In this document: positions 13,098 through 51,441 of the stretch, piece by piece
How positions within the stretch are numbered: position 1 is the stretch's first letter
Layout: each line of letters opens with the position of its first letter
Assembly: GCA_038043245.1 (NCBI GenBank)
Contig: JBBTCH010000003.1
Location: 100,601 to 164,600, forward strand
Length of the DNA: 64,000 nucleotides
Direction of reading: 5' to 3'
Source of the DNA: Pseudomonadota bacterium
Lineage (GTDB): Bacteria; Pseudomonadota; Gammaproteobacteria; Nevskiales; Nevskiaceae
Made by a program: the position numbers and the translations under genes
The notes under the pieces: model-generated
The model's database searches: none
What the model was told of the DNA's origin: nothing
Seen by the model: the letters and a program-made list of their open reading frames with translations, nothing else

Positions 13098-13219
13098 TAC
13101 CCGCTTGAGGCCATTTACAGGCTTCAGGGGCCGATTCCGAAAAACACGTGGTACTAAAAGTGTACCACCCGTTTTCTCGAACCGGTCTTGCAGGCTCTAA
13201 AAAGACCTCAAGCGGGTGG
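13098..13219. repeat. MITE-like element, copy A
   Basis: TACCCGCTTGAGG ... GTGGTACTAAAAGTGTACCAC (13148-13168) ... CCTCAAGCGGGTGG. The ends are terminal inverted repeats. Confidence 0.7.
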
Positions 13220-13284: not shown

Positions 13285-13361
13285 GCGCCCGTAGCTCAGT
13301 TGGATAGAGCACTTGGCTACGAACTAAGGGGTCGGAGGTTCGAATCCTTCCGGGCGCACCA
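13285..13361 (+). tRNA. tRNA-Arg: tRNA-Arg, anticodon ACG, CCA encoded
   Basis: Hand-folded cloverleaf. Acceptor GCGCCCG/CGGGCGC, D arm GCTC..GAGC, anticodon stem CTTGG/CTAAG with loop CTACGAA, T arm GGAGG-TTCGAAT-CCTTC. Confidence 0.95.
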
Positions 13362-13417
13362 GTTTTCGGACGAAAAAGAAACCCGCTCTTGGCGGGTTTT
13401 TTCGTTTGAGGACGCGC
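13341..13417 (+). repeat. Left copy of island-flanking direct repeat (tRNA 3' half plus terminator)
   Basis: Matches 24577-24657. The first 27 nt differ at one position. Confidence 0.8.
13379..13406. terminator. Rho-independent terminator after tRNA-Arg
   Basis: AAACCCGC-tcttg-GCGGGTTT followed by TTTCGTTT. Confidence 0.7.
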
Positions 13418-13678
13418 CCCGAGGTTCCCTCCGAGCGGCGGTAATACCACCCTGTCGAAGGTAGCGCGGCTCATCCATGAGCCGCAGCTTTCGGCCTCGC
13501 TACGCTCGCACTATCAGCATATCCATGTAGCTGATAGCCGAATCCTTCGGGGCCACATTTTTTAATGCACGGCAGGTCGTTTCCGTCCCGCCTCCCAACT
13601 GGTATAACAGCGCGCAAGAAGATGCGCCGGCATCCGACAAGGTTCAACTGCGACGACGTGCTGATTGGGGAGGAAAGG

Positions 13679-15049
13679 GTGGAAAAAATCACGCTGGATC
13701 AGCTGAAAGACCTCTATCCGCTTAACCAGCATCCAATACAGGTAGCGGAAGAACTGCTGCCGACGGTTCGAACCCGCTGGTATTCGAGCGGCCGTTCCCT
13801 GTTCAATGTCGGCGACAGTCCAGACGACTATTTTTACGTGCTCGAGGGTTCGGTCGTGCTGTCCGACCGCGACCAGCAGCGCGGTCAAACCGTCGGGCCG
13901 GTTTCGCAGGAAGAAGCGATTCCGATGCCGTACATGGTGCCCAGCGTTCATCTGGCATGGGCCGCCACTGACGCCAGAATTCTGCTGATCGATCGCAGGC
14001 AATTTCTGGATGTCATTCAGAAGGCCAAATCGCGCAGGCTCAGCGCGCTTGCCCAATCGTCCGCCGGCGGTTCCGCGGATCTATGGGCAGCCGACGCCGC
14101 CGTTTCCCATCCGGCCCCGGGAACCGTGCCTGCGCCGGCGATAAATCCAGGAGTTCGCGGGCCAGCCACGGCTCCCGCACCGATCTCCGAGGAATTCGAG
14201 AGAAATCTGGCGTTGGGCCGCGCGCAAATCCCTGAGCCGCCGCAAACGCCGATGCCGGCGCCCGATGAGCCCGAGCAGAAACCAGCGAGTGAGCCTCCGG
14301 CTGCGGATGCGCCGTTGCACAGCGAGCCCGGGACCGCCCACATGGAGCGCATCCTGCTGGTCGAGGATCACCCGACCGACGCCAAGATGGCGCAACTCAT
14401 GCTGAAAACACTGGGCTACGGTTCGGACTGGGTCAGCGGCGGCCCCCAGGCATTGAGCGCGATGGAGCGAAAGCGCTACCAGATTGTTCTTCTGGATGTG
14501 CAGCTGCCGGGGGTGGATGGGTTTGAAATCACGCGGTGTATCCGCGAACGCTGGCCCGGCGCCGCCGGGCCGCACATCATCGCGCTGACGGCGCGCAGCC
14601 TGAAGGGGGACCGCGAAGCCTGTCTTGCCGCCGGCATGGACGATTACATTCCCAAACCCATTTCCATTCACCTGCTGAGCGCAAAGCTCAATGACGAGAA
14701 CTGGGCGCTGGTGGATCCGAAGGTCATCGAGCATTTCGCCATGGCGGTCGGCAAGACCGGAGTGACCGCGCTGATCGACTCCTATCTGGACGCAATGCCC
14801 AGCATGATCGCGGACCTGCACAAGGCGGTGGCTGCAAATAATGCCAAAGACTTGCACCTTGCAGCGCATTCGCTGAAAGCGGCCGCGCAGGTTCTGGGCG
14901 TCCATCTCATCGCCGGTTACGCCGCGAAACTAGAAACCCTCGGCCGGTTCGCCAAGCTCGATGGCGCTCCGGCATTGCTCAGCCAGATCGACAGCGTGCG
15001 CCAGGAAACCGTGATCGAGCTGCAGAAGCTGCGCACGTTATATGGCTGA
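13679..15049 (+). CDS. cNMP-binding-like / receiver (REC) / Hpt fusion protein
   Basis: GGAGG lies 5 nt before the in-frame GTG at 13679; the ORF is open from 13565. GRSLFNVGDSPDDYFYVLEGSVVL is CAP-effector-like. REC: ILLVEDHPTD...LLDVQLPGVDG...YIPKP. Hpt: AAHSLKAAAQVLG. Confidence 0.75.
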   Translation: MEKITLDQLKDLYPLNQHPIQVAEELLPTVRTRWYSSGRSLFNVGDSPDDYFYVLEGSVVLSDRDQQRGQTVGPVSQEEAIPMPYMVPSVHLAWAATDARILLIDRRQFLDVIQKAKSRRLSALAQSSAGGSADLWAADAAVSHPAPGTVPAPAINPGVRGPATAPAPISEEFERNLALGRAQIPEPPQTPMPAPDEPEQKPASEPPAADAPLHSEPGTAHMERILLVEDHPTDAKMAQLMLKTLGYGSDWVSGGPQALSAMERKRYQIVLLDVQLPGVDGFEITRCIRERWPGAAGPHIIALTARSLKGDREACLAAGMDDYIPKPISIHLLSAKLNDENWALVDPKVIEHFAMAVGKTGVTALIDSYLDAMPSMIADLHKAVAANNAKDLHLAAHSLKAAAQVLGVHLIAGYAAKLETLGRFAKLDGAPALLSQIDSVRQETVIELQKLRTLYG

Positions 15050-15404
15050 ACCTGCCCGGGAGCTCGACCCTGACGCCCTGAAAAAACTGGCCGAGATCAT
15101 CGGCCACGACGGCGCCATCGAGATCGTTCAGACCTTCCGCGCTGATATCCAGAACCGGCTCACGGAGTTCAAGACCGGGTTACAGCAGGGTGACTTAAAA
15201 CTGGTTGAGCGCGCCGCGCACACGCTGAAGTCGGGGTCGGCCTACGTGGGAGGCCATTCATTTGCCGGCCTGTGCCAGACGCTGGAAACCGCAGCGAGCG
15301 AGAGCAGAACGGAAATTCTGCTCGAAAAGCAACATGAATTCGAACAGCGCCTGCTGCGCATCAGCGCGGAGCTTCTGGCGCTGGAGTCAGGCGCCAACAG
15401 TTGA
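15042..15404 (+). CDS. Stand-alone histidine phosphotransfer (Hpt) protein
   Basis: AAHTLKSGSAYVGG Hpt motif. Its start overlaps the upstream stop (ATGGCTGA). Confidence 0.75.
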   Translation: MAEPARELDPDALKKLAEIIGHDGAIEIVQTFRADIQNRLTEFKTGLQQGDLKLVERAAHTLKSGSAYVGGHSFAGLCQTLETAASESRTEILLEKQHEFEQRLLRISAELLALESGANS

Positions 15405-15456
15405 AGCGACGGCGGTGCCCGTACCCGCGGCCTCCGCTCGTAGAAATTCCCAAAAC

Positions 15457-15491
15457 CCCGACTTTCGTCGGGAACCCGACTTAGGTCGGGT
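15457..15491 (+). other. Two tandem near-identical hairpins between the Hpt gene and the pilin gene
   Basis: CCCGAC-tttc-GTCGGG (15457-15472) and ACCCGAC-ttag-GTCGGGT (15474-15491). Confidence 0.35.
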
Positions 15492-15597
15492 ATGAAATAT
15501 CTACACCCCTGCCTACAGTGCCGGCGCACTCAGGAGGGCTTGGTTGTTCGCCATCAACGCCTGGGCCCTTCACTCACATACATCAGGAGATGTACAC

Positions 15598-16080
15598 ATG
15601 AAAACAGCAATTCGTAGTTTTGCCGCCGTCGTTGTGGTCGCTGTGGCCTCTTCATCGGCGTTCGCTGCAAGCAGCACCCATGATCTGGCCGTGTCAGCCC
15701 AGATCAATGGCAATTGCAAATTCAACGGCGCCGGCCCGACCGCGCTGACCCTCGCCAACAGCGGCGCCCTGATTGATACGTCCCTGGCGACCGACGCCAC
15801 CGGCTCGGCCACCGTGCCGTTCCGTTGCACCAAGGGCACGACGTCAGCGATCTCGGCGGGCAATGGTCTGCACTTCGCCGGCGGCTCGCGCAATGTGGAT
15901 TCGGGCACGGAAACCATGGCGTACTCGCTGGCCCTGTCGGATGACGCGCAGGTCGGTACTGGCCACGGCGCCGGTCAGGATCTGACCCTGACGGTCGATG
16001 GCACGATCGCCTTCGCGAATCACCAGAACGCCAGCGCGGGCACCTACACGGACACCGTGGTTCTGACCATCACCCCGTAA
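15598..16080 (+). CDS. Spore-coat-U (SCPU) domain pilin, likely major subunit (CsuA/B-like)
   Basis: AGGAGA lies 7 nt upstream. Signal peptide ends ...SSSAFA. C-terminal AGTYTDTVVLTITP is typical of SCPU/Csu subunits. Confidence 0.85.
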   Translation: MKTAIRSFAAVVVVAVASSSAFAASSTHDLAVSAQINGNCKFNGAGPTALTLANSGALIDTSLATDATGSATVPFRCTKGTTSAISAGNGLHFAGGSRNVDSGTETMAYSLALSDDAQVGTGHGAGQDLTLTVDGTIAFANHQNASAGTYTDTVVLTITP

Positions 16081-16103
16081 TTTTTCTCCCTAGGCACAAG
16101 ACC

Positions 16104-16145
16104 AAGGCTGCGGCAGGATATCGCCGCAGCCTTTTCTTTTTCCGG
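16104..16145 (+). terminator. Rho-independent terminator/attenuator after the major pilin gene
   Basis: AAGGCTGCGGC-aggatatc-GCCGCAGCCTT followed by TTCTTTTTCC. Confidence 0.6.
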
Positions 16146-16198
16146 GGCTGTGCTGGCGATCTTCCTTCGCCAGACCCGGAAAGGCCGAAGGTGTTTTC

Positions 16199-16687
16199 AT
16201 GAATCTACGTCAACGCACCGTGTTTGCCGTGCTGGCCTTCGGGCTGACGGCAATGGCGTGCCCGGCCCGGGCCGCTGGTTCGCACACGCTGTCGGTCGGC
16301 GCCACGATCCTGTCCAAGAATCAATGCAAGTTCACCAATGGCGGACCGACTGCGCTTGCGTTCGGCGCGATTGACCCTTCATCGCCTGCGGACAGCACCG
16401 CGACGGCCACCACCACCTTCAAGTGCACCGGCTCGAGTCCGATGGCGACCTATCAGATCACCTCGGACGACGGCCTGTACGAAACCAGCACGAGTGCGCC
16501 GCGGATGCGCCATGGCACCAACCTGGCCGAATTCCTGCCGTACTCAATCAACCTGCCGCAGTCCGCGACGGTCCCCAAAAACGTGACCCAGACCCTGACG
16601 GTCAACGGCACCATCCTCGCTGCGCAGTTTCAGAATGCGCTGGCCGGTGCCTATAGCGACACGGTGGTTCTCACGATTTCGCCGTGA
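16199..16687 (+). CDS. SCPU-domain pilin subunit (CsuA-like)
   Basis: Signal peptide and C-terminal AGAYSDTVVLTISP. Confidence 0.85.
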   Translation: MNLRQRTVFAVLAFGLTAMACPARAAGSHTLSVGATILSKNQCKFTNGGPTALAFGAIDPSSPADSTATATTTFKCTGSSPMATYQITSDDGLYETSTSAPRMRHGTNLAEFLPYSINLPQSATVPKNVTQTLTVNGTILAAQFQNALAGAYSDTVVLTISP

Positions 16688-16716
16688 TGTGTCGTCACCG
16701 CCTGCCCTGCTAGGCT

Positions 16717-17469
16717 ATGCACATGCTGAAAATCCGTGGAATTTTCTGGCCAGTGGCGCTGGGGATGGCGGTTTTTATTTCAACAGCCGCCCAGGCCAGC
16801 GGCTTTGGTGTTGCGCCGATCCGCCTGGATTTCGACCGCACCTCGAAGACCGGGCTCATCGAGGTCAGCAATGACGATACGCGGCCACTGTCTTTCCAGA
16901 TGAAGTTGTTCGCCTGGAGCCAGGATGCCGAGGGCAAGGATCAGTATCAGCCCAGCAATGACCTGATTTTCTTTCCGCAGATCATGTCCCTGAAACCCAA
17001 GGAAAAGCGGCCCATCCGGGTCGGCACCAAGGGTCCGCCGGCGGCGTCTGAGCGCGCCTACCGCCTGTTCATCGAGGAACTTCCCGATCCTGCCGAGACA
17101 GCTGCGGCGAAAGCGCCGCAGATTGCGGTCCGGATACGGTTCGGTGTGCCGCTGTTCGTGGCCCCGGCCCAGCCGCAAATCGCCGGTGTGATTGAAGATG
17201 CGAAGTTGGCCAAGGGAGAAATTCAACTGCGGGTGAGAAACACCGGCAACCGTAATTTCCAGTTTGAAACCGTCGCGGCCCGCGCCGGCACAACCTCTAT
17301 AGGCGAGACGCGAGGGTGGTATCTGTTTCCCGGCATCGCACGCGCCTACAGCATCAAAGTGGATTCGGAAGCCTGCGCCAAGGCAAAAACACTGGAAGTC
17401 CATTTAAGCGCGGACGGCCTGGAACTCAAACACGAGCTGGAAGCCACTCCCACGCTCTGCCGTCCCTGA
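16717..17469 (+). CDS. Periplasmic pilus chaperone (PapD/CsuC-like)
   Basis: GFGVAPIRLDFDRTSKTGLIEVSNDDTRPLSFQMKLFAW is a typical chaperone N-domain. Confidence 0.85.
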   Translation: MHMLKIRGIFWPVALGMAVFISTAAQASGFGVAPIRLDFDRTSKTGLIEVSNDDTRPLSFQMKLFAWSQDAEGKDQYQPSNDLIFFPQIMSLKPKEKRPIRVGTKGPPAASERAYRLFIEELPDPAETAAAKAPQIAVRIRFGVPLFVAPAQPQIAGVIEDAKLAKGEIQLRVRNTGNRNFQFETVAARAGTTSIGETRGWYLFPGIARAYSIKVDSEACAKAKTLEVHLSADGLELKHELEATPTLCRP

Positions 17470-17512
17470 CGGCTGGCGCTACACGCCAGCTGGATTTTCC
17501 GGAGTCTGTCGG

Positions 17513-19906
17513 GTGAAGCGGTTTTTTCTGCTATGCGTTGTCGCTGCCCTGATATTCCGGTCACTGGATGCGTCCGCACAACCAACCGGTGCCGCCGTCC
17601 GCCCCGTACGTCAAGCCGCCAGCCCGCTGCAGGCCCTGGTCGCCGCCATCACGGTCAACAGCGAACCCAAGGGGGAAGGAATTCTCTACCTCGAAGGTCA
17701 GGATGATTTTTTAATCAAACTCTCCGAGCTCGAAGCGCTGGCCAAGGTTCCAGCGACCATCGAGGCGGTGGAGATCGAAGGCGAGCACTACATTGCATTG
17801 AAGCGCCTTCCCGGCGCAGAAATCGTGTTCGATGAGAAAACCCTGACACTGGCTATCGTCCTGCCGCCCGAGGCGTTCGAAAACCGGGTTTACAGTCTCG
17901 CCACCAGCCGCGCCTCCGCAGAGCCGCTGCCGGATCAATTCAGTGCCCTGCTCAATTACCGGATGAGCCATACCGGCGACGACCAGGGGTCTGCGGGCAA
18001 CTGGGTTCTGGGCGCCGAGGAGGGTTTACACCTGGGAAACTGGTTGTTCGCCAACCAGAACCAGTTTTTGTATGACGCCCGGCGCTTCCAGTCCCTGCGC
18101 TACGGCACGCAGCTGATTCGCGACTATCGCGAACACATGCAACGCCTGACCCTGGGTGATGCGTTTACCGCGCCCAGAGAACTCGGCGCTTCGGTGCCGG
18201 TTGCCGGCGTGAGCTTCTCCAAGGCCTACCAGTTATCGCCGTATTTCGTGCGGGTGCCCTCGGTCAATTTCGCCGGCACCACGTCTCTGCCGTCCGAAGT
18301 GGATTTTTATGTGGGCGATACCCGCGTCCTGCGCCAGCAGGTCTCGCCGGGGCCGTTTGAAATTGCCGACTTCAACTATTACGGAGGCCAGCGCGATGTC
18401 CGCGTTGTGCTTCGCGACAACCTGGGACGCGAGCAGACCATTGCCTACCCGTTTTATTTCACGGATCAGGGATTGGCGCGGGGTCTGCACGATTACAGCT
18501 ACCAGATCGGCGTCCTGCGCAGGGATTTTGGGCTTGAGACCAGCCGCTATGGCTCCCCCGCATTTTCGACATTTCATGCCTACGGCTTTACCGATTCGAT
18601 CACGCTGGGATTTCGCACCGAAGGGACTGCGGACTACGGCAACCTCGGCCTCAATGCCGTTTTGCGCAGCGATTATCTCGGCGTGTTGTCCTTGAATGGT
18701 GCCAGCAGCCTCGACGGCGGCGGACGCCGCGGAGCTGCTTATGCTGCGGCCTACAGCTTCCAGTCGGGCGGGTTTTCCGGCGTACTGGCGGGGCGCCGGT
18801 TCAGCGACGCTTACACCGCGCTTACTGCCGGCGTGCCGGTATTGCCGCCGAAACGGGAGCTCAACGGATCATTGGGATACTCGATTGCCGGACTGGGCTC
18901 CCTGAACATCGGCTACAGCCGCCGCGACTCCTATATCAACGCCGGTTCCAGTCAGGCAAGTCTGGGTTATTCACGCAGCTTTCTGCGCAAGCTCAATGTG
19001 TTCGCGACCTATCGCCATCGCATCGGTCAGAGCGCTGGAGATGAGGTGTTCATCGGCCTGCAGTACCAGCCCGGCGCGAACCACACGGTGGGCGCCTCGG
19101 TACAAGCCAATGATGCCGGCAGGCAGCACGGGCAGATCCAGGTCGCCAATGCGCTGCCGCAAGGCCAAGGCTACGGCTACCGGCTTGGCCTTGAGCGCGA
19201 GAACGACCCGGTCGGTGCAGCCACGTTTGTCTCTCCGGAATTGCAACTCAATACTCGTTACGCCGCCCTATCCGGAATCGCCCGCTCACAATTCGGATCG
19301 GCGGCGTCCGCTACGACTTATTCCGTTGCGATGGCCGGGAGTCTCGCGACGGTGGGCGGCCATGTCGGCTTCAATCGACCCATCAGCGACAGTTTTGGCG
19401 TCGCCGAGATCACGCCGCCGCTAGCCGATGTCCGCGTCTATCAAAACAGCCAGGAAGTCGGTCGTACTGACAGTAATGGCCAATTGTTTTTGCCCGAGAT
19501 CATCTCGTTCATCGACAACCACATTTCGATCAATGACAAGGATATTCCGATCGAATACGGCATGGACCGCACGTCTCGCCTGTTTTCTGCTTCATTCCGC
19601 AGCGGATCAGTGCTCAAATTTTTGGTACGGCGCACGCAAAGCTTCGCCGGATCGCTGAAATACAGCATGGCGGGCACCCCGTTACCGCTGGAGTATCATT
19701 CGGTGCTGTTGACCGTGGGCGCGGACAAAATAGACTTTCTTACGGGCGGTAACGGTGACTTCTACCTTGAGAACATTCCCGCAGGCACTCATCAGGCATT
19801 GGTGCGGATCGGCGCTGTCGAATGCACGTTCACCGTGGTCCTGCCGGAAAGTCCGGAGATATTCATCGCGCTCGGCGAGGTCATGACCTGCGATGTCGCG
19901 CCTTAA
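17513..19906 (+). CDS. Outer-membrane pilus usher (CsuD-like)
   Basis: 797 aa, GTG start, signal peptide, located between the chaperone and the tip-subunit gene. The length and position fit an usher. Confidence 0.85.
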   Translation: MKRFFLLCVVAALIFRSLDASAQPTGAAVRPVRQAASPLQALVAAITVNSEPKGEGILYLEGQDDFLIKLSELEALAKVPATIEAVEIEGEHYIALKRLPGAEIVFDEKTLTLAIVLPPEAFENRVYSLATSRASAEPLPDQFSALLNYRMSHTGDDQGSAGNWVLGAEEGLHLGNWLFANQNQFLYDARRFQSLRYGTQLIRDYREHMQRLTLGDAFTAPRELGASVPVAGVSFSKAYQLSPYFVRVPSVNFAGTTSLPSEVDFYVGDTRVLRQQVSPGPFEIADFNYYGGQRDVRVVLRDNLGREQTIAYPFYFTDQGLARGLHDYSYQIGVLRRDFGLETSRYGSPAFSTFHAYGFTDSITLGFRTEGTADYGNLGLNAVLRSDYLGVLSLNGASSLDGGGRRGAAYAAAYSFQSGGFSGVLAGRRFSDAYTALTAGVPVLPPKRELNGSLGYSIAGLGSLNIGYSRRDSYINAGSSQASLGYSRSFLRKLNVFATYRHRIGQSAGDEVFIGLQYQPGANHTVGASVQANDAGRQHGQIQVANALPQGQGYGYRLGLERENDPVGAATFVSPELQLNTRYAALSGIARSQFGSAASATTYSVAMAGSLATVGGHVGFNRPISDSFGVAEITPPLADVRVYQNSQEVGRTDSNGQLFLPEIISFIDNHISINDKDIPIEYGMDRTSRLFSASFRSGSVLKFLVRRTQSFAGSLKYSMAGTPLPLEYHSVLLTVGADKIDFLTGGNGDFYLENIPAGTHQALVRIGAVECTFTVVLPESPEIFIALGEVMTCDVAP

Positions 19907-20381
19907 ATATTTTTTAGGGGGAGTGCTCCTGTGCTTTGCAGGCAGCAGCTACGGGCAGAGCCCCCACACCACGTGCAGCGCCAGCAATGCCAGCCTCAGT
20001 CTGGGTCAGTACCCCAGCTACAGCGCAACGCCGGTGGACTCCAGCGGAGTTTTTACCGTGACCTGCACGCGCACCGGCGGCCCGCCGGATACCGACATCA
20101 CCGTCGGACTCGGTCCCAGCGCAAATTCCGGCAGCATCCCGAATCGGCAGCTGCGGTCCGCGAGTGGAGCCGATGTCTTGAACTACAACCTTTACGCCGA
20201 TGCCTCAAGACTGCGGGTCTGGGGGGATACCGAAGGGGTGAACACGGTGACCGAGACCATCCGGCTTGCGAACAAAACCAGCGGCAGTCTGAACTTCAAT
20301 ATCTACGCGAGGATCGACGCGCTGCAGGACGTGCGCGCGGGGCTGTATTCCGACTCGATCGTGGTCACGGTGAGTTTTTAG
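19893..20381 (+). CDS. SCPU-domain subunit, probable tip/adhesin (CsuE-like position)
   Basis: Overlaps the usher stop. C-terminal AGLYSDSIVVTVSF. Confidence 0.8.
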   Translation: MSRLKYFLGGVLLCFAGSSYGQSPHTTCSASNASLSLGQYPSYSATPVDSSGVFTVTCTRTGGPPDTDITVGLGPSANSGSIPNRQLRSASGADVLNYNLYADASRLRVWGDTEGVNTVTETIRLANKTSGSLNFNIYARIDALQDVRAGLYSDSIVVTVSF

Positions 20382-20393
20382 CGGGACACTCGC

Positions 20394-21089
20394 TCAGAAC
20401 GAAGAAATTGTGGACACCTGCATCATGCGCTGAGCCGCGATGGCGGCTTCGGTTCGTCTGCGTAGACCCAACTGGCGCAGGATCAGGGTGACGTGCCATT
20501 TCACGGTGGCTTCCGCCATGTTCAGCTCGCTCGCGATCTGCTTGTTCAGACGACCCTCGGCTACCAGCATCAGCACGCGGAACTGCATGGGCGTCAACTC
20601 GGGAATGCGCGAGGCCGGGTCGTGGCGTGTGTCGTCTTTCGTGGCCATGCGCACCGCGGGTGGAACCCAGGTTTCTCCGTTTAAAACCAGACGCAGCACG
20701 TCGGCCAACTCGACAATCGGCAGGGATTTCGGCACATAGGCGCGGGCGCCCAGCTCAAGGGCGCGACGCATCACATCCGCCTCTTCATGGCCTGAGACCA
20801 CCACCACGGGCAACCGCGGATGTTCGGTCCGCAGATAGTTCAGACAGGAGAATCCGTCGGCGCCAGGCATGTCCAGATCGAGCAACACAAAATCCGTTGC
20901 AGACCGATTTTCAAAATGTCGTTTGAGTGACTCGAAAGAATCGGCTTCCGCAGTGCGTGAGATGCCCAGCGAGCGCGTCAGCAGCAAACGCATCGCGTCC
21001 CGGAACATCGGGTGATCGTCCGCGATCAATACCTGTCGCGGAACAGGGCGCACAGCTTTTGCAGCTTTGTTTTTTAATGGTTTGGACAT
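20394..21089 (-). CDS. NarL/FixJ-family response regulator (REC plus LuxR HTH)
   Basis: VLIADDHPMFRD...LLDLDMPGADG; HTH LTPMQFRVLMLVAEGRLNKQIASELNMAEATVKWHV. Confidence 0.9.
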   Translation of the reverse strand: MSKPLKNKAAKAVRPVPRQVLIADDHPMFRDAMRLLLTRSLGISRTAEADSFESLKRHFENRSATDFVLLDLDMPGADGFSCLNYLRTEHPRLPVVVVSGHEEADVMRRALELGARAYVPKSLPIVELADVLRLVLNGETWVPPAVRMATKDDTRHDPASRIPELTPMQFRVLMLVAEGRLNKQIASELNMAEATVKWHVTLILRQLGLRRRTEAAIAAQRMMQVSTISSF

Positions 21090-21177
21090 GCAGGATGACG
21101 ACCACTCCCTGCCACAACATTAACACCCGTAAGGCTTGACCGCATCGGTATCGTGCCTCGCGACTTCCGAAACCCCG

Positions 21178-24100
21178 CTACTGCGCTCCGGGCCTTTGCA
21201 CACAGCGTTTCAGCGCAGCCACCAGGGCTTCTGCGGTCACCGGCTTGACCACGTAGTCCTGCATGCCGGCGCGCTCGCCTTCGTGACGGTCTTCAGCCAT
21301 GGCATTGGCGGTCATGCCGACGATGCGCGGGCGCCGGTCGGGCGGGAAGCGCTTGCACAGCGTTCGCGTCGCTTCCAGGCCATCCATCACCGGCATCTGC
21401 ACATCCATGAAGACCACGTCATAGGCCAGGCGCTCGACCGCGGCCACCGCCTCCTGACCATTGGCGACGAAATCGGGCTTGTAGCCCATGCGGTTGAACA
21501 GCAGCTGCGCCACCTTCTGGTTCACCGTGTTGTCTTCGGCGATCAGGATGCGCAGCGGATGTTCCTGCCCGAGATTCTTCGGCAGTTCGAAGCGGGTATT
21601 TTCGTTGTCCATTTTGGTTCTCGGCATTTTCTTGAGTACTTCCTGCGTGACCTCGAGCAGGCGCGAGGGCTTGATCGGCTTGAGCATCGCGGCGGTGATG
21701 ACGCCGGGCTTCTCGCCTTTGACGAGGGCAGAACTCAGCATGACGATCGGCAGTTCCGCTTCCGGCCGCAACTTGCGCAGCTTGCGCGCCAGCTCAAGGC
21801 CGTCCATGCCCGGCATGTGGAAGTCCAGCAGCGCAATGTCGTAGGGGTCGCCCCGTTCTATCCACTGCAGGGCTTCGCTGGCGCTGTCGGTGGCCTGCGG
21901 CTCCATGCCCCAGGCGCGGCTGTAGTGCAGCAGGACGCGACGGTTGATCTCGATGTCGTCCACGATCAGCACCCGCCGTCCGCGCAGGCCAGGAATCTCC
22001 GCCTGCGGCGTGATGCGTTTGTCGAGCGGTGCCGCTGAAACACGGACGGTGAAACTGAAGACCGAACCCTGTCCGGGCTGGCTTTCGACCCGGATCGTCC
22101 CGCCCATCAGCTCGACCAGACGTTTGCTGATCGACAATCCCAGGCCGGTGCCGCCGTAGGTGCGCGTGGTGGAGCTGTCTACCTGGGAGAAGGGCTTGAA
22201 CAGCTTGGCTTGTTGTTCCGGATTCATGCCGATGCCACTATCCTTCACTGCGAATTCGATCTCGTAGGCTTCGTCCAGCTTGCGCGCCGAAACCTCGACC
22301 GACACCTGGCCTTGGGCGGGCGTGAACTTGACTGCGTTGGACAGCAGGTTCAACAGCACCTGGCGCAGGCGACTGACGTCGCCGCGGACGCCTTCCGGAA
22401 CTTCGGGTTGAGTGAGGTAGCCGACTTCCACGTTCTTCTGGGCTGCCGCCGCAGAGATGAGATCCAGCGTGGTTTCAATGCACTCGCGCAAGGCAAAAGA
22501 CTCGGATTCAAGCTCGACCTTGCCGGCCTCGATTTTGGAGTAATCGAGGATGTCGTTGATGATCGTCAACAGATGCTCGCCGCTGTTGCGGATGATCTCG
22601 GTCCATTCCCGCTGCTCGGGCGTCTGCCTGGAATCCATCAGGATGCTGGTCATGCCGATGACGGCGTTCATCGGCGTGCGGATTTCGTGGCTCATGTTGG
22701 CCAGGAACGCGGTCTTGGCTTCGGCGGCGGCATGCGACGCGGTCTGGGCGGATTTCATGTCCTCGATATCGGTGGACGTACCGAACCACTTGACCACATT
22801 GCCCTGCTCGTCCTTGAGTGGCAGCGCGCGCGCCAGATGCCAGCGGTAGATGCCATCGTGCCGCCGCAACCGGTACTTCGCCTCCAGCGGAGTGCCCGCT
22901 TCCAGGGACTCGCGCCAGGCGGCTCGCGTTGCCTCAAGATCATCACGATGAAGCCCTTTCTCCCACCCAGTCCTTATGACGGTTTCAAGCGTAGCCCCGA
23001 AGTAATTGGTGAGCGCCGAATTGGCGAAGTTCAGGGTGCCATCGGGCTGCGCCGTCCATACATGCTCGGGGATGGCTTCGCTCAGGAACCGGTAGTGGGC
23101 CTCGCTTTCGCGCTGCGCCTGCTCGGCCTTGATGCGCTGCGTGATGTCAGCCGCCACGCCGCCGATGAATAATCGTTTTTGGGCATCAACGAAGCGGAAC
23201 CGGGTCAAATACCAGTAATGATCGACCCCTTGGGCGTCCGCCGCCGACCCCTCCGATTCGCTGGACTGCCCTGTCCTCAGTACCGGCAGTTCCTTGTCCC
23301 TGCAGAGCTGGGCAAAGTCCTTGGGGAACAGGTCGAAATCGGTCTTGCCCTTCCAGCGGTCGTCGTAAATCCCGAGGAATTTGCGGTATGCGGCGCTGAC
23401 AAAAAGATATCGTCCGTCTTCATCCTTCATCCAGCTCAGCGAGGGGTTATTGTCCAGAAACATCTGGAATCGACCTTCGCTTTCACGCAGTTCGCGCTCC
23501 AGGCGTCTTTGTTCCGTGACATCCAGGCCGATGCCGGCCACGAATTTTCTGCCGTCACTGCCGGGCAGGGAGAATTTTTGAATCCACCAGTCTGCGACCT
23601 TGCCATCGCGGTCCCGGGTGTTGCACTCAAATTGGACCGGCGAATCGGAATCCAATGCGCGACGGTCAGTTTCGCTGAAAAGTCGTGCTTCATCCGCCGA
23701 GAAGAATGAAGTGTCGTCGCGCCCGGACCAGTCGTCCTCTTTCGCGCCGAATCGCTTTTTATGGGCCTTGTTCCGGGTGACATAGCGACCGTCATCGGTT
23801 TTGATCCAGGCGATCGCCGGCGTGTATTCCAGAAACGACTTGAATCGGTCTTCGGCCTCCTGCACCGCTTTCTGAGCGTGCCGAAGCCGGGTGAAATCCC
23901 ACCAGGACGAGCGCGACAGGATTTCCTGGTTGTACGCGCCCAGGACCGCGATTACGCCAAAGAAAATAAGCAGGTAGGCCTGCAGCAAGGGCACATTTCC
24001 GTTGCCCGGATACAGAAACTCCAGGGCGATGGCGGCCGCTGTGAAGGCAACGGAGGTCGGAGCGATCCTGGCCCAGCTGAAGCCGCCAAAGAACGTGATG

Positions 24101-24469
24101 GCGATCAGCGTGACGCCAAACATGCCCGCGGGATAGCGCATTTCCCCTTCGAGGGAAAAATACCGGAAAACGAGGATCACGGACAGCAGAATGACCACGG
24201 CCGCGCTTTGAACGCCCTGCGCCCAGACCCGGGGTGTTCGAAAAAAGCTGACGGCCGCGGCAGCGAGACAGATCGGCATCACCAGAGCCAGTTCGAGGAT
24301 CACCAGTAATTGCGCCATGGCCGGCGAAGGCAGAAACAGATAGTCCTGATACAGCGGCGCCAGCCCGAATCCCAGGGCGAACGCTACAAATAATCCTGTT
24401 CTCGCCGCTCTCAAGCTTCGCCGCAGATATTCGCGGAACGCGATTTCCAGGTCGGGCGGGAAACGCATG
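21178..24469 (-). CDS. Hybrid sensor histidine kinase: multi-TM N-terminus, 3 PAS, HisKA/HATPase, two REC domains
   Basis: [19 protein letters not shown]-box, [10 protein letters not shown], and two receivers ([11 protein letters not shown] and [11 protein letters not shown]). ATG at 24469; the ORF-track start at 24501 is a TTG. Confidence 0.85.
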
Positions 24470-24506
24470 TCACGCACTTCTCTGCTCAATTTGCGATGCA
24501 ATTTGT

Positions 24507-24517
24507 GGGGGGGGGGG
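24507..24517. repeat. G11 (C11 on the kinase strand) homopolymer tract
   Basis: Counted directly: atttgtGGGGGGGGGGGtat. It lies 38-48 nt upstream of the kinase ATG at 24469. Confidence 0.9.
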
Positions 24518-24576
24518 TATTCACTTTGTCTTGCTGTCTATAGGAGGGCTTGTCTCAAGAGTCAGACACTATCGCG

Positions 24577-24657
24577 CGAATCCTTCCGGGCGCGCCAGTT
24601 TTCAGCGAAAAAAGAAACCCGCTTCTGGCGGGTTTCTTTTTCGTTTGAGGGCGCGTT
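24577..24657 (+). repeat. Right copy of island-flanking direct repeat (orphan tRNA-Arg 3' half plus terminator)
   Basis: cgaatccttccgggcgcGccagttttc... aligns with 13341-13417. By hand alignment there are 8 mismatches and one 3-nt indel over ~77 nt. Confidence 0.8.
24613..24645. terminator. Bidirectional rho-independent terminator (serves csrA on the minus strand)
   Basis: GAAACCCGC-ttctg-GCGGGTTTC with T-runs on both strands. Confidence 0.7.
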
Positions 24658-24659
24658 CG

Positions 24660-24845
24660 CTATTCGGGTTTTTTCGCGGCTTCGTCAGCCTGAATGCGCC
24701 CCGCGACTTCTTCGCGGTGCACGGCGACATCCTTGGGCGCCTTGATGCCGATGCGCACCTGGTTGCCTTTGAGGCCGAGGACGGAGACGACGATCTGATC
24801 GCCGATGACGATGGTTTCGCCGACGCGGCGGGTGAGTATCAGCAC
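24660..24845 (-). CDS. csrA: Carbon storage regulator CsrA/RsmA
   Basis: (M)[45 protein letters not shown], with a GTG start. Confidence 0.95.
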
Positions 24846-49605: not shown

Positions 49606-51441
49606 ATGACCTTCCAGCTCAGTGATCGCGGCCGCGAGTTTTTTGGCATCGATCTGCGCACGCTGGCGCTGTTCCGTGTTCTGCTGTCGGGCGTCATCGC
49701 CTGGAATCTGCTGATCCGCCTGACCGCCGTTCCGGAGTTTCTCAGCGACTGGGGCGTGATGCCGCGCGACTGGCTGATCAACTCCGCCGGCGCGATCCGC
49801 GTCAGCCTGTACATGATCAACGGCGGCACCTGGCTGGCCGTTCTGCTGTTGCTGACGGAGTTTCTGGCCGCACTGGCGATGCTGATCGGCTGGCACACAC
49901 GTGCGGCGGTATTGCTGGTATTTGTGCTCGAAGGTTCGCTGCAGTCGCGCAATCACATGATCCTGATCGGCGGCGACAACCTGATCATGTGCCTGCTGTT
50001 TTGGTCCTTGTTTCTACCGCTGGGCGCGCGCTGGAGCGTGGATGCCGCGCTTTCGACCACGCCGCCACCGCGCGACAACTTGTATCTGTCCTGGGCCTCG
50101 GCCGGCCTGCTGGTTCAGGTCATGTCGGTGTATTTCTTCAGCGCGGTGCTGAAGAACGGTGCCGACTGGTGGCCGGACGGAACCGCGGTGTACTACGCGC
50201 TGAGTCTCGACCGCTTTGCCGCACCGCTGGGCCAGTGGCTACGCGATATTCCGTTGCTGACGCATCCATTGACCTACTTCGTTTACTTCCTCGAGTGGGC
50301 AGGACCGATCCTGATCTTTCTGTATTCCCGTTATCTGCGTCTGGGAGTGATGCTGCTGTTCATGCTGATGCACACCGGCTTCATTTTCACGCTGGAGATA
50401 GGGCATTTCCCCTATGTCAGCCTGTCCTCGCTGACGGTGTTCATTGGTGGCTGGCTGTGGGACGCGGTGGCACGGGCGCGCGACCATGGCCGCAGCATCC
50501 GCATCTGGTACGACCGCGACTGCGGGTTCTGCTGGAAGATGTGCCGCCTGCTGGAAGTGTTCCTGGCATTGCCGCGGACGCAGATTCGTCCGGCGCAGGA
50601 CGACGCGGTCGCCGGTCCGCTCTTGATCGCCAACAATTCCTGGGTGGTGATGGACGACCGCGGCACTCACCTCAAATGGCAGGCCTTCGTCGCCCTGCTG
50701 CGCCATTCGCCGCTGTTCGGCCGGGCCTGGCGTATCGCCGCCTGGCGCATCTGGAACTGGCCAGGCACGATCGTCTACAACTTCGTGGCGTGGCAGCGGC
50801 CGCGCTTTGCTCGCCTGACGGGTGCTGTGCTGCCTGAACGTGCAGTGCGGTTCGAGGTCGGACCGTTTGCCCAGAAGTTCGTGGCGGTGATGGTGTTCGC
50901 GGTGTTTGCCTGGAACCTTTCAACCATCAAGGTATTGCCGGGAACAGTTGTGGGCACGCTCACCCCGTTTTTCACTTTGCTCCGGATTGATCAGCACTGG
51001 GGGATGTTTGCGCCCTATCCCTCGCATGATGACGGCTGGATGGTGGTCCCGGGGACGCTGGTGGACGGCACCGAGGTCAACGTGATCCGCCCTTGGGAAC
51101 GGTTGGACTACGACAAGCCCCGATACATTTCGCAGTCACATGAGTCCGGTATCCGGTGGCGCAAGTATCGCGAGCACTTGTGGTCAAAGAAGCATGCCGA
51201 TGAGCGGCTCTATTACGCGCGCTATCTGTGCCGCGACTGGAACCTGCGCGCCAGGCCTTCGAAGCGCCTGCTCTCGCTGGAACTGGTCTACATGCTCGAA
51301 CGCTCGGTGCCTGAGGGTCAGACGCCAGTGATTGAGCGCAAATCCCTTTGGAAACACCAATGCGTATCGCCCAAGGTGGCGGCAAAAGCCAAGGCGGAGA
51401 TCGTTGGCGGTGATTCGCCTGATTCAAAGCCGGGTGATTGA
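49606..51441 (+). CDS. HTTM (gamma-carboxylase-like membrane) domain fused to a DCC-family CxxC thiol-disulfide oxidoreductase
   Basis: FGIDLRTLALFRVLLSGV at the start of a multi-TM region. IWYDRDCGFCWKMC is a DCC-type CxxC. The C-terminal DQHWGMFAPYP region is also present. Confidence 0.8.
   Translation: MTFQLSDRGREFFGIDLRTLALFRVLLSGVIAWNLLIRLTAVPEFLSDWGVMPRDWLINSAGAIRVSLYMINGGTWLAVLLLLTEFLAALAMLIGWHTRAAVLLVFVLEGSLQSRNHMILIGGDNLIMCLLFWSLFLPLGARWSVDAALSTTPPPRDNLYLSWASAGLLVQVMSVYFFSAVLKNGADWWPDGTAVYYALSLDRFAAPLGQWLRDIPLLTHPLTYFVYFLEWAGPILIFLYSRYLRLGVMLLFMLMHTGFIFTLEIGHFPYVSLSSLTVFIGGWLWDAVARARDHGRSIRIWYDRDCGFCWKMCRLLEVFLALPRTQIRPAQDDAVAGPLLIANNSWVVMDDRGTHLKWQAFVALLRHSPLFGRAWRIAAWRIWNWPGTIVYNFVAWQRPRFARLTGAVLPERAVRFEVGPFAQKFVAVMVFAVFAWNLSTIKVLPGTVVGTLTPFFTLLRIDQHWGMFAPYPSHDDGWMVVPGTLVDGTEVNVIRPWERLDYDKPRYISQSHESGIRWRKYREHLWSKKHADERLYYARYLCRDWNLRARPSKRLLSLELVYMLERSVPEGQTPVIERKSLWKHQCVSPKVAAKAKAEIVGGDSPDSKPGD

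Follow-up and report, generated by a model that had tools for sequence, protein, structure and literature searches.

Results

The locus and its boundaries

Here, we describe a locus within a 64,000-nucleotide stretch of DNA (the window) from the assembly of an uncultured environmental gammaproteobacterium of the Nevskiaceae (GCA_038043245.1, contig JBBTCH010000003.1, positions 100,601 to 164,600 of the forward strand), in which a putative Csu-type chaperone-usher pilus operon is flanked on both sides by signalling genes. We refer to the genome that holds the window (2.52 Mb) as G000, to related genomes by other G numbers, and to contigs from metagenomes or metagenome-assembled genomes (MAGs) by L numbers. 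The locus comprises nine genes, and all of them, together with the domains and the gene order given in a preliminary description of this DNA, are borne out by Pfam matches (PF00027, PF00072, PF01627 and PF05229). They form one discrete, tRNA-bounded genomic island that lacks an integrase, located between tRNA-Arg(ACG) and csrA/aspartate kinase (window 13417-24576, 11.2 kb), and each of the nine open reading frames (ORFs) inside its terminal repeats is a pilus or a signalling gene.

The left end of the island is formed by its integration target, tRNA-Arg(ACG) (13285-13361, + strand, detected with ARAGORN). The left direct repeat (13341-13416) consists of the last 21 nt of this tRNA and the downstream terminator, and the right direct repeat (24577-24655) of a displaced tRNA-Arg 3' end with its terminator; local alignment of the island ends gives roughly 90% identity across 76-79 bp. 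The right repeat terminates in GCGCCA, as does the native tRNA of the congener G001, and the reconstituted tRNA of G000 terminates in GCACCA. A displaced repeat with a congener-type tRNA end is to be expected here because site-specific integration into a tRNA 3' end leaves such a trace. G001 itself presents the empty site: its tRNA-Arg lies about 435 bp from the aspartate kinase gene, with just tRNA-Ser and csrA between them, and in G007 a tRNA-Arg-like match adjoins the aspartate kinase gene on the same strand. Past the right repeat of the island follow csrA (24660-24845, - strand), the aspartate kinase gene and then alaS. The aspartate kinase-alaS pair is syntenic order-wide, and csrA and tRNA-Arg alongside this pair are seen in G000 and G001. 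The earlier proposal of a self-contained cassette is strengthened by these data, since tRNA-derived repeats bound all nine genes. A plasmid megablast with the 11-kb region returned short receiver-domain matches only. In the spacer 5' of the tRNA, a perfect GTGGTAC-N7-GTACCAC hairpin is present at window 13148-13168.

The pilus operon

The first gene of the operon encodes an SCPU pilin with a signal peptide, the probable major subunit (longest ORF 15544-16080, + strand; Pfam SCPU, PF05229), and its probable start is the ATG at 15598, which in our reading of the sequence is preceded by AGGAG. A promoter/terminator scan places a strong terminator-like hairpin of 11 pairs, 8 of them G-C (16104-16133), together with a T-tract 3' of this gene (16104-16143, + strand). 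A terminator after the major pilin gene is a classical route to an excess of the major subunit in pap/fim-type operons, and the hairpin is probably an attenuator through which the proportion between major pilin and assembly proteins is set. Then follow, all on the + strand, a second, minor SCPU pilin (16199-16687; 50.7 bits), a PapD-like periplasmic chaperone of the CsuC type (16717-17469; Pfam PapD_N), for which CsuC is the sole PDB sequence match (E = 3.5e-10), an outer-membrane usher of 797 amino acids (17513-19906; Pfam Usher, 88.9 bits) and a post-usher SCPU subunit of 162 amino acids (19893-20381; 101.7 bits). The three SCPU proteins score between 45 and 102 bits in Pfam, each above the cut-off.

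The last of these proteins had been described as a tip subunit. An SCPU protein does occupy the post-usher position, but it consists of a single 162-amino-acid domain, so that "tip" denotes its position only. CsuE and CupE6 are two-domain adhesins, and we did not find a two-domain protein of either type after the usher. The weak PDB match of the post-usher subunit is the CsuA/B pilin, not CsuE.

Judged by its predicted products, the operon belongs to the archaic (sigma/Csu-type, SCPU-subunit) chaperone-usher pili, and the nearest ushers sit in operons with the same SCPU gene order. None of these ushers is close. Among the 40 related genomes searched, identity to the usher is 28% or less; the highest identity found anywhere, 43%, is that of an usher in a Chloroflexi MAG whose chaperone and pilin are 51-66% identical to those of the island, and usher-based surveys of genome and metagenome collections gave nothing above that 43%. 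The Chloroflexi pilus locus (L041) is a 5.6-kb contig with flanking ORFs that have no Pfam match. The next matches, at 30-35% identity and with the same gene order, come from Desulfobacterota-type MAGs and metagenome contigs. G000 also contains a second SCPU-type chaperone-usher cluster (C1:890015-893659), with pilin, chaperone, usher and post-usher subunit genes whose products are 27-35% identical to those of the island.

The predicted relay proteins

Downstream of the operon and convergent with it, 12 bp separate the stop codon of the tip gene from that of a NarL/FixJ-type response regulator gene (20394-21089, - strand; Pfam Response_reg and GerE helix-turn-helix), with D71 as the predicted phospho-acceptor. 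On the same strand lies the gene of a hybrid histidine kinase (21178-24501, - strand), whose 1107 amino acids comprise a multi-transmembrane sensor, three PAS domains, HisKA, HATPase_c and two Response_reg domains. The N-terminus of the kinase contains several hydrophobic, transmembrane-like segments, for which Pfam gave no family match. A motif scan finds its phospho-acceptors H605, D893 and D1033 intact, and a whole-genome scan for Hpt (PF01627) found no such domain in the kinase frame. By NCBIfam, the regulator and the kinase core are nearest to ErdR and NahK/ErcS (NF041830, NF041832), both well below the cut-offs: the best match of the regulator is ErdR (206.9 bits, cut-off 390), and the NahK/ErcS C-terminal model gives 192.7 bits with the kinase (cut-off 400). 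The kinase start, previously placed at 24469, is corrected to the probable ATG at 24468; the longest ORF starts at TTG 24501. Reading of the promoter region of the kinase gene reveals a G11 homopolymer (24507-24517; C11 on the kinase strand), located 6 nt upstream of TTG 24501 and 39-49 nt upstream of ATG 24468; strand slippage at this run could switch the kinase/NarL operon.

Upstream of the pilus operon, two genes encode Hpt carriers. The first product is a fusion of a CNB-like domain, a receiver (REC) and an Hpt domain (13565-15049, + strand; 494 amino acids), with Pfam scores of 31.1 bits for cNMP_binding (PF00027; cut-off 27.5), 79.8 for Response_reg (PF00072) and 33.8 for Hpt (PF01627). 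The start proposed earlier for this gene, 13679, corresponds to a GTG that is used by the public gene call (456 amino acids), but the longest ORF begins at 13565. Predicted phospho-sites of the fusion are D311 and H435, the latter in the motif AAHSLKAAA, and the alignment of the fusion family shows both the receiver Asp and the Hpt His to be invariant. The second product is a stand-alone Hpt protein of 120 amino acids (15042-15404, + strand; Pfam Hpt, 52 bits), with H60 in AAHTLKSGS, for which a word-indexed homologue search returned the query alone. As the preliminary description had noted, its ATG overlaps the stop codon of the fusion gene, within ATGGCTGA at 15042-15049. The motif scan finds the phospho-acceptor motifs of the fusion, the small Hpt and the NarL-type regulator intact as well. 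With these four proteins, the predicted component set of a multi-step His-Asp-His-Asp relay is completely encoded on the island.

The CNB-like domain of the fusion is shared with its orthologues in G003 and G011, which also pass the cNMP_binding threshold. An AlphaFold2 model built with 14 family members (mean predicted local distance difference test score, pLDDT, of 73.5) consists of a beta-rich N-terminal domain with a long helix, the REC domain and a helical bundle; the linker of residues 130-221 is disordered, and the phosphate-binding loop has a pLDDT below 50. Foldseek with the whole model returned nearly all receiver domains, the multi-domain hits listed carrying one too, which leaves the CNB-like domain uninformed. 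HMMER against 1.84 billion representative proteins gave 69 matches to this domain at E <= 0.001, 14 of them at E <= 1e-10, and in 9 of the 10 representatives scanned it lies N-terminal to a canonical CNB domain, in 5 of those 9 together with a rhodanese domain. The nearest relatives outside the fusion family (P0243-P0256) are degenerate N-terminal CNB domains in proteins with a second, canonical cNMP-binding domain.

A neighbouring genus has proteins that combine the CNB-like domain with REC but carry no Hpt. We found the complete architecture of three domains in G000, G003, G011 and metagenome contigs closely related to them, and nowhere else in the genomes searched; this corresponds to 3 of the 12 genomes of the genus, and the CNB-like domain as a whole is present in 15 of the 187 genomes of the order. 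We found no published description of a CNB-like-REC-Hpt architecture.

Relay genes in related genomes

The nearest relatives of the signalling genes lie inside the genus, at other loci. In G011 and contig L087/L088, an orthologue of the kinase core and its two receivers (65-72% identity) is encoded directly upstream of an orthologue of the fusion, with an identity of about 48% for the whole protein and 60% for its REC-Hpt part; the two genes overlap by 4 bp in L087, where the sensor of the kinase is of the MHYT type. In G008, a kinase orthologue (52%) is followed after a gap of 2 nt by an Hpt orthologue (40%), and in L089 and L091 a gene for an Hpt protein of 124-126 amino acids lies directly 5' of the fusion gene. 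The signalling clusters adjoin glmS in G011, G003 and contigs L087 and L091, and no glmS is found near the cluster of L089. They hold further kinase genes, and those of L087 and L089 also a PAS-GAF-GGDEF-EAL gene.

An orthologue of the NarL-type regulator was not found in the relatives sampled, where the best matches (48-50%) resemble ErdR-type paralogues. In a collection of 5.8 billion proteins, its closest homologue (66%) is encoded on L082, a contig of the same genus with housekeeping genes 79-88% identical to those of G000, and directly 5' of it lies the gene of an Hpt homologue that is 43.5% identical to the small Hpt of the island. The genes that flank this Hpt-NarL pair in L082 sit side by side in G000, and the pair is missing at that locus.

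Kinase-fusion, kinase-Hpt and Hpt-NarL adjacencies thus occur each separately in sister genomes, and the four genes are found together only in G000. As gene-neighbourhood evidence, these adjacencies suggest that the four proteins act in one pathway, though they fall short of proof. They also agree with the earlier suggestion that the hybrid kinase, having no Hpt, depends on an external one to reach the NarL-type regulator, which follows standard phosphorelay logic.

Two further features accompany these genes. A conserved predicted lipoprotein of 186-219 amino acids without a Pfam match is encoded in the Hpt/fusion clusters of congeners and beside the Hpt-NarL pair (L089:6656-7216, L087:3707-4282, L091:4054-4614, and on the - strand L012:4058-4717 and L082:10900-11484), and a homologue of it is absent from G000. 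On L111 (130-5897), the gene of a NarL homologue (55%) is convergent with that of a giant surface protein, which has SpaA_4 and CLIPPER repeats and exceeds 1800 amino acids, so that a regulator is paired with an adhesin there as well.

Links between relay and pilus

The pilus operon is the only non-regulatory cargo of the island and is therefore the obvious target of the relay. Two of the signalling clusters of congeners moreover hold, near their Hpt and fusion genes, a gene for a secreted mini-protein of 88-93 amino acids that is SCPU-like (L087:3315-3581 and L089:7288-7569). Both mini-proteins are homologues of pilin 2 over its N-terminal half (BLASTP E = 4e-14 and 3e-8), and in L089 a C-terminal strand resembling SCPU is retained as well. 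They may be what is left of a lost pilus operon, or else small orphan subunits, and their presence points to an older association of relay and pilus genes.

In three distant relatives of the pilus operon, from Desulfobacterota-type sources, a convergent response-regulator gene lies 3' of the tip gene, in the position that the NarL-type gene occupies here, and encodes an NtrC-type sigma-54 regulator (L042:13372-14736, L043:2730-4085 and L080:1979-3427, all on the - strand). Between the tip gene and the regulator gene, L042 and L080 carry an ORF of 160-162 amino acids without a Pfam match.

The region 5' of pilin 1 contains two tandem perfect 16-bp palindromes, CCCGAC-N4-GTCGGG (15457-15472 and 15475-15490), spaced 18 bp apart and roughly 108-141 bp before the ATG. 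Neither the window nor the rest of the 2.52-Mb genome has a further exact copy. A 7-2-7 arrangement of heptamer sites is known for dimers of the NarL family. The palindromes can be read as 7-2-7 and are candidate operators of the NarL-type regulator; equally, they could be RNA hairpins.

Discussion

The explanation that best accounts for the whole of these observations, and that we hold to be probable from the genes and their neighbourhoods, is that the island combines a pilus operon with a relay that activates the pilus. From the domain and motif content that we observe, and with partners taken from gene neighbourhood, we infer a path of phosphotransfer, an operator and a direction of regulation as follows. 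The membrane-bound, PAS-containing hybrid kinase would autophosphorylate on H605 and pass the phosphoryl group to a receiver of its own, at D893 or D1033. From there it would be transferred to the histidine of an external Hpt, H60 of the 120-amino-acid protein or H435 of the fusion, and finally to D71 of the NarL-type regulator. A dimer of the phosphorylated regulator would bind near the promoter of pilin 1, with the tandem palindromes as the best candidate sites, and turn on the pilus operon; that the relay switches the pilus on is the most likely direction of control. The fusion, with its own receiver (D311) and its divergent CNB-like domain, may be a second point of entry or exit, either phosphorylated directly by the H-box of the kinase, or serving as a sink or gate in competition with the small Hpt. 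The signalling genes presumably derive from relay modules that reside at other loci in sister species, and here would travel with the pilus genes.

Several observations weigh against this explanation. Relatives possess these signalling genes unaccompanied by a pilus operon. Pfam found no integrase or other mobility gene among the nine ORFs of the island, and the G+C content of the island (0.60-0.62) falls within the range of 0.60-0.67 elsewhere in the window. A simple scan did not detect a sigma-70-like promoter upstream of pilin 1, and the palindrome was not found near the NarL homologue of L082 or at the other loci of interest that we fetched. As for the "cNMP-like input" proposed earlier, the PF00027 match is above cut-off, but the domain is divergent and the phosphate-binding residues are not conserved: in the alignment with PKA-R (3of1) the canonical Glu and Arg are missing, with Ala and Ser in their place, and the family motif PHRARA reads VHLAWA in the copy of the window, with Leu where most members keep Arg. 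Finally, a genome scan of G000 counts at least nine Hpt-less hybrid kinases but only three small Hpt carriers. Cross-talk is therefore likely, in that the two Hpt modules may act for other kinases and the kinase may have further outputs, and the exclusive dedication implied by the earlier term "dedicated" is doubtful.

This last imbalance also speaks for an alternative that we regard as possible, albeit unlikely: the kinase, Hpt modules and NarL-type regulator of the island might be nodes of a wider phosphorelay web of the host, with the pilus at most one of several targets, or controlled mainly in another way. In congeners, the orthologues belong to large clusters close to glmS that contain several kinases together with GGDEF-EAL, cyclase and Ser/Thr-kinase partners but lack a pilus operon, and those NarL homologues that reach 52-53% identity are orphan regulators resembling ErdR. 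However, the four relay genes lie in one 11-kb mobile unit in which the pilus operon is the sole other cargo; the fusion gene is present only once in G000, and the one other Hpt carrier outside kinase and CheA-type proteins is a REC-Hpt frame of 284 amino acids on contig C2.

What does the fusion protein add to the relay? The preliminary description had called the relay "branched or gated", which is speculation. One reading, which we consider quite unlikely, is that the fusion is a ligand-gated phosphotransfer node in which a small molecule other than a canonical cNMP would bind the divergent CNB-like domain and choose the route to the NarL-type regulator, through the fusion or through the small Hpt. 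If so, the island would be a portable two-input module of the kind "sense, then build pilus", and the fusion the first described ligand-gated Hpt carrier. Alternatively, the fusion may act as a brake that drains phosphate from the small Hpt or from the kinase, like the Roc/PvrR-type antagonists or phosphate-sink receivers, and sets a threshold for the pilus. Antagonistic second branches are known for cupD (PMC3842833), the fusion has a receiver of its own ahead of its Hpt, and its translational coupling to the small Hpt, and to the kinase in relatives, suggests a stoichiometric partnership. Nonetheless, we judge a brake very unlikely, as the invariance of the Hpt motif AAHSLKAAA in the family argues for use in transfer rather than for a relic, and the fusion has no phosphatase or output domain.

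That tRNA-Arg/csrA is simply a recombination hot spot, at which a foreign pilus operon and native signalling genes accrued separately and remain uncoupled, seems highly improbable. In its favour, the usher has no match above 28% within the genus and its best one in a Chloroflexi MAG at 43%, the signalling genes have their closest relatives in the genus, so that the two sets differ in history, no integrase is present, and the left flank is not syntenic with congeners; against it, a single att-like repeat pair encloses all nine genes, regulators lie on both sides of the operon with spacing as tight as the 12 bp between tip and NarL stops, and SCPU-like mini-genes occur in the signalling clusters of congeners.

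How does the island compare with known systems, given a relay that probably activates the pilus? The cupD genes of Pseudomonas aeruginosa are a classical chaperone-usher cluster, not one of the SCPU-subunit type, and their island is far larger than 11 kb. In strain PA14, cupD lies with pvrSR and rcsCB on PAPI-1, and the genes were "probably acquired together" (PMC2696094, PMC3842833). As on our island, a chaperone-usher cluster is accompanied by two-component genes on horizontally acquired DNA and the sensors are hybrid or unorthodox; the pilus genes are activated by RcsB, a regulator of the NarL/LuxR type, as we propose for the island regulator. Where the Hpt comes from is a question in that system, and a search for the Hpt of PvrS gave no answer (PMC3842833, PMC2696094). 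The cupD system differs in having two sensors and an EAL-type antagonist (PvrR), in that RcsC carries its own Hpt, and in lacking both a stand-alone Hpt and a CNB-like-REC-Hpt protein, whereas Pfam identified no EAL domain on the present island and no Hpt in its kinase.

In Burkholderia thailandensis, the csuFABCDE operon is of the archaic Csu type and, like that of the island, is physically linked to signalling genes, the two-component pair bfmSR, which control it through a promoter upstream of csuF (PMC12124856). BfmSR is described as a single kinase with a single regulator, no Hpt step being mentioned (PMC12124856), and its expression depends on the csu promoter, with positive autoregulation. 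On the island, in contrast, a predicted multi-step relay of four proteins flanks both sides of the operon, and the kinase and regulator are encoded on the opposite strand.

The BfmRS and PprAB genes are unlinked to the Csu and CupE pilus genes, respectively. The island operon shares with A. baumannii CsuA/BABCDE and P. aeruginosa CupE1-6 its SCPU-fold subunits, a CsuC-like chaperone, an usher, the position of the major pilin gene first, followed by chaperone and usher, and a likely role in biofilm formation or adhesion (PMC6003481, PMC10104325); CupE is controlled by PprAB (PMC3510237). The island differs in having only two pilins before the chaperone and a single-domain post-usher subunit.

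A pairing of Hpt and regulator genes similar to that of L082 is found in the hptC(PA0033)-PA0034 operon, which joins a single-domain Hpt gene to an orphan response regulator with a helix-turn-helix output of NarL type (PMC3842833) and acts on cupA fimbrial genes; LadS/PA0034 is reported to act on cupA1 (PMC11237798). The Roc systems likewise offer branched kinase-regulator networks that control cup genes (PMC3842833, PMC11237798, PMC12051241). Unlike on the island, the genes of these systems are unlinked to their pilus targets, the RocS sensors carry their own Hpt, and a CNB-like-REC-Hpt component is lacking.

Chaperone-usher pili under the control of linked two-component genes, also on an island, have thus been described before (PMC3842833, PMC12124856), and the earlier statement that no self-contained cassette of pilus and regulators had been described is contradicted by cupD-pvrSR/rcsCB (PMC3842833, PMC2696094) and csuFABCDE-bfmSR (PMC12124856). 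The new features of the present island are an SCPU-type operon, a very small size without further cargo, and a relay that needs an external Hpt and supplies two, one of which is joined to a receiver and to a divergent domain of the CNB-like type, an architecture that within the genomes searched is limited to this genus.

Archaic pili of the Csu/CupE type drive biofilm formation in several bacteria, and their wiring to environmental signals is known in few species. The island packs a sensor kinase, two alternative Hpt carriers, a NarL-type regulator, a candidate operator and a single target into 11 kb, and a circuit complete in so small a space is self-contained and convenient to rebuild as a multi-step relay in a laboratory host. 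Such a rebuilt relay could reveal what a second Hpt, coupled to a receiver and a ligand domain, adds. Relay genes that are scattered over several loci in sister species are here gathered around a horizontally acquired operon, and the gene-neighbourhood evidence yields concrete predictions of partners. The source being an uncultured environmental bacterium, we regard the finding as useful rather than surprising.

Further observations on the genus

An ORF of 611 amino acids in the window (49606-51441) is not glmS; glmS of G000 lies on contig C10. There, glmS and glmU (G000:C10:124958-128980) are about 60% identical to those of congeners (L011, L012, L087 and L091), which are 91-94% identical among themselves. 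Either glmUS has been replaced in G000 or the genus bin is heterogeneous. The aspartate kinase next to the island is 82-88% identical across the genus.

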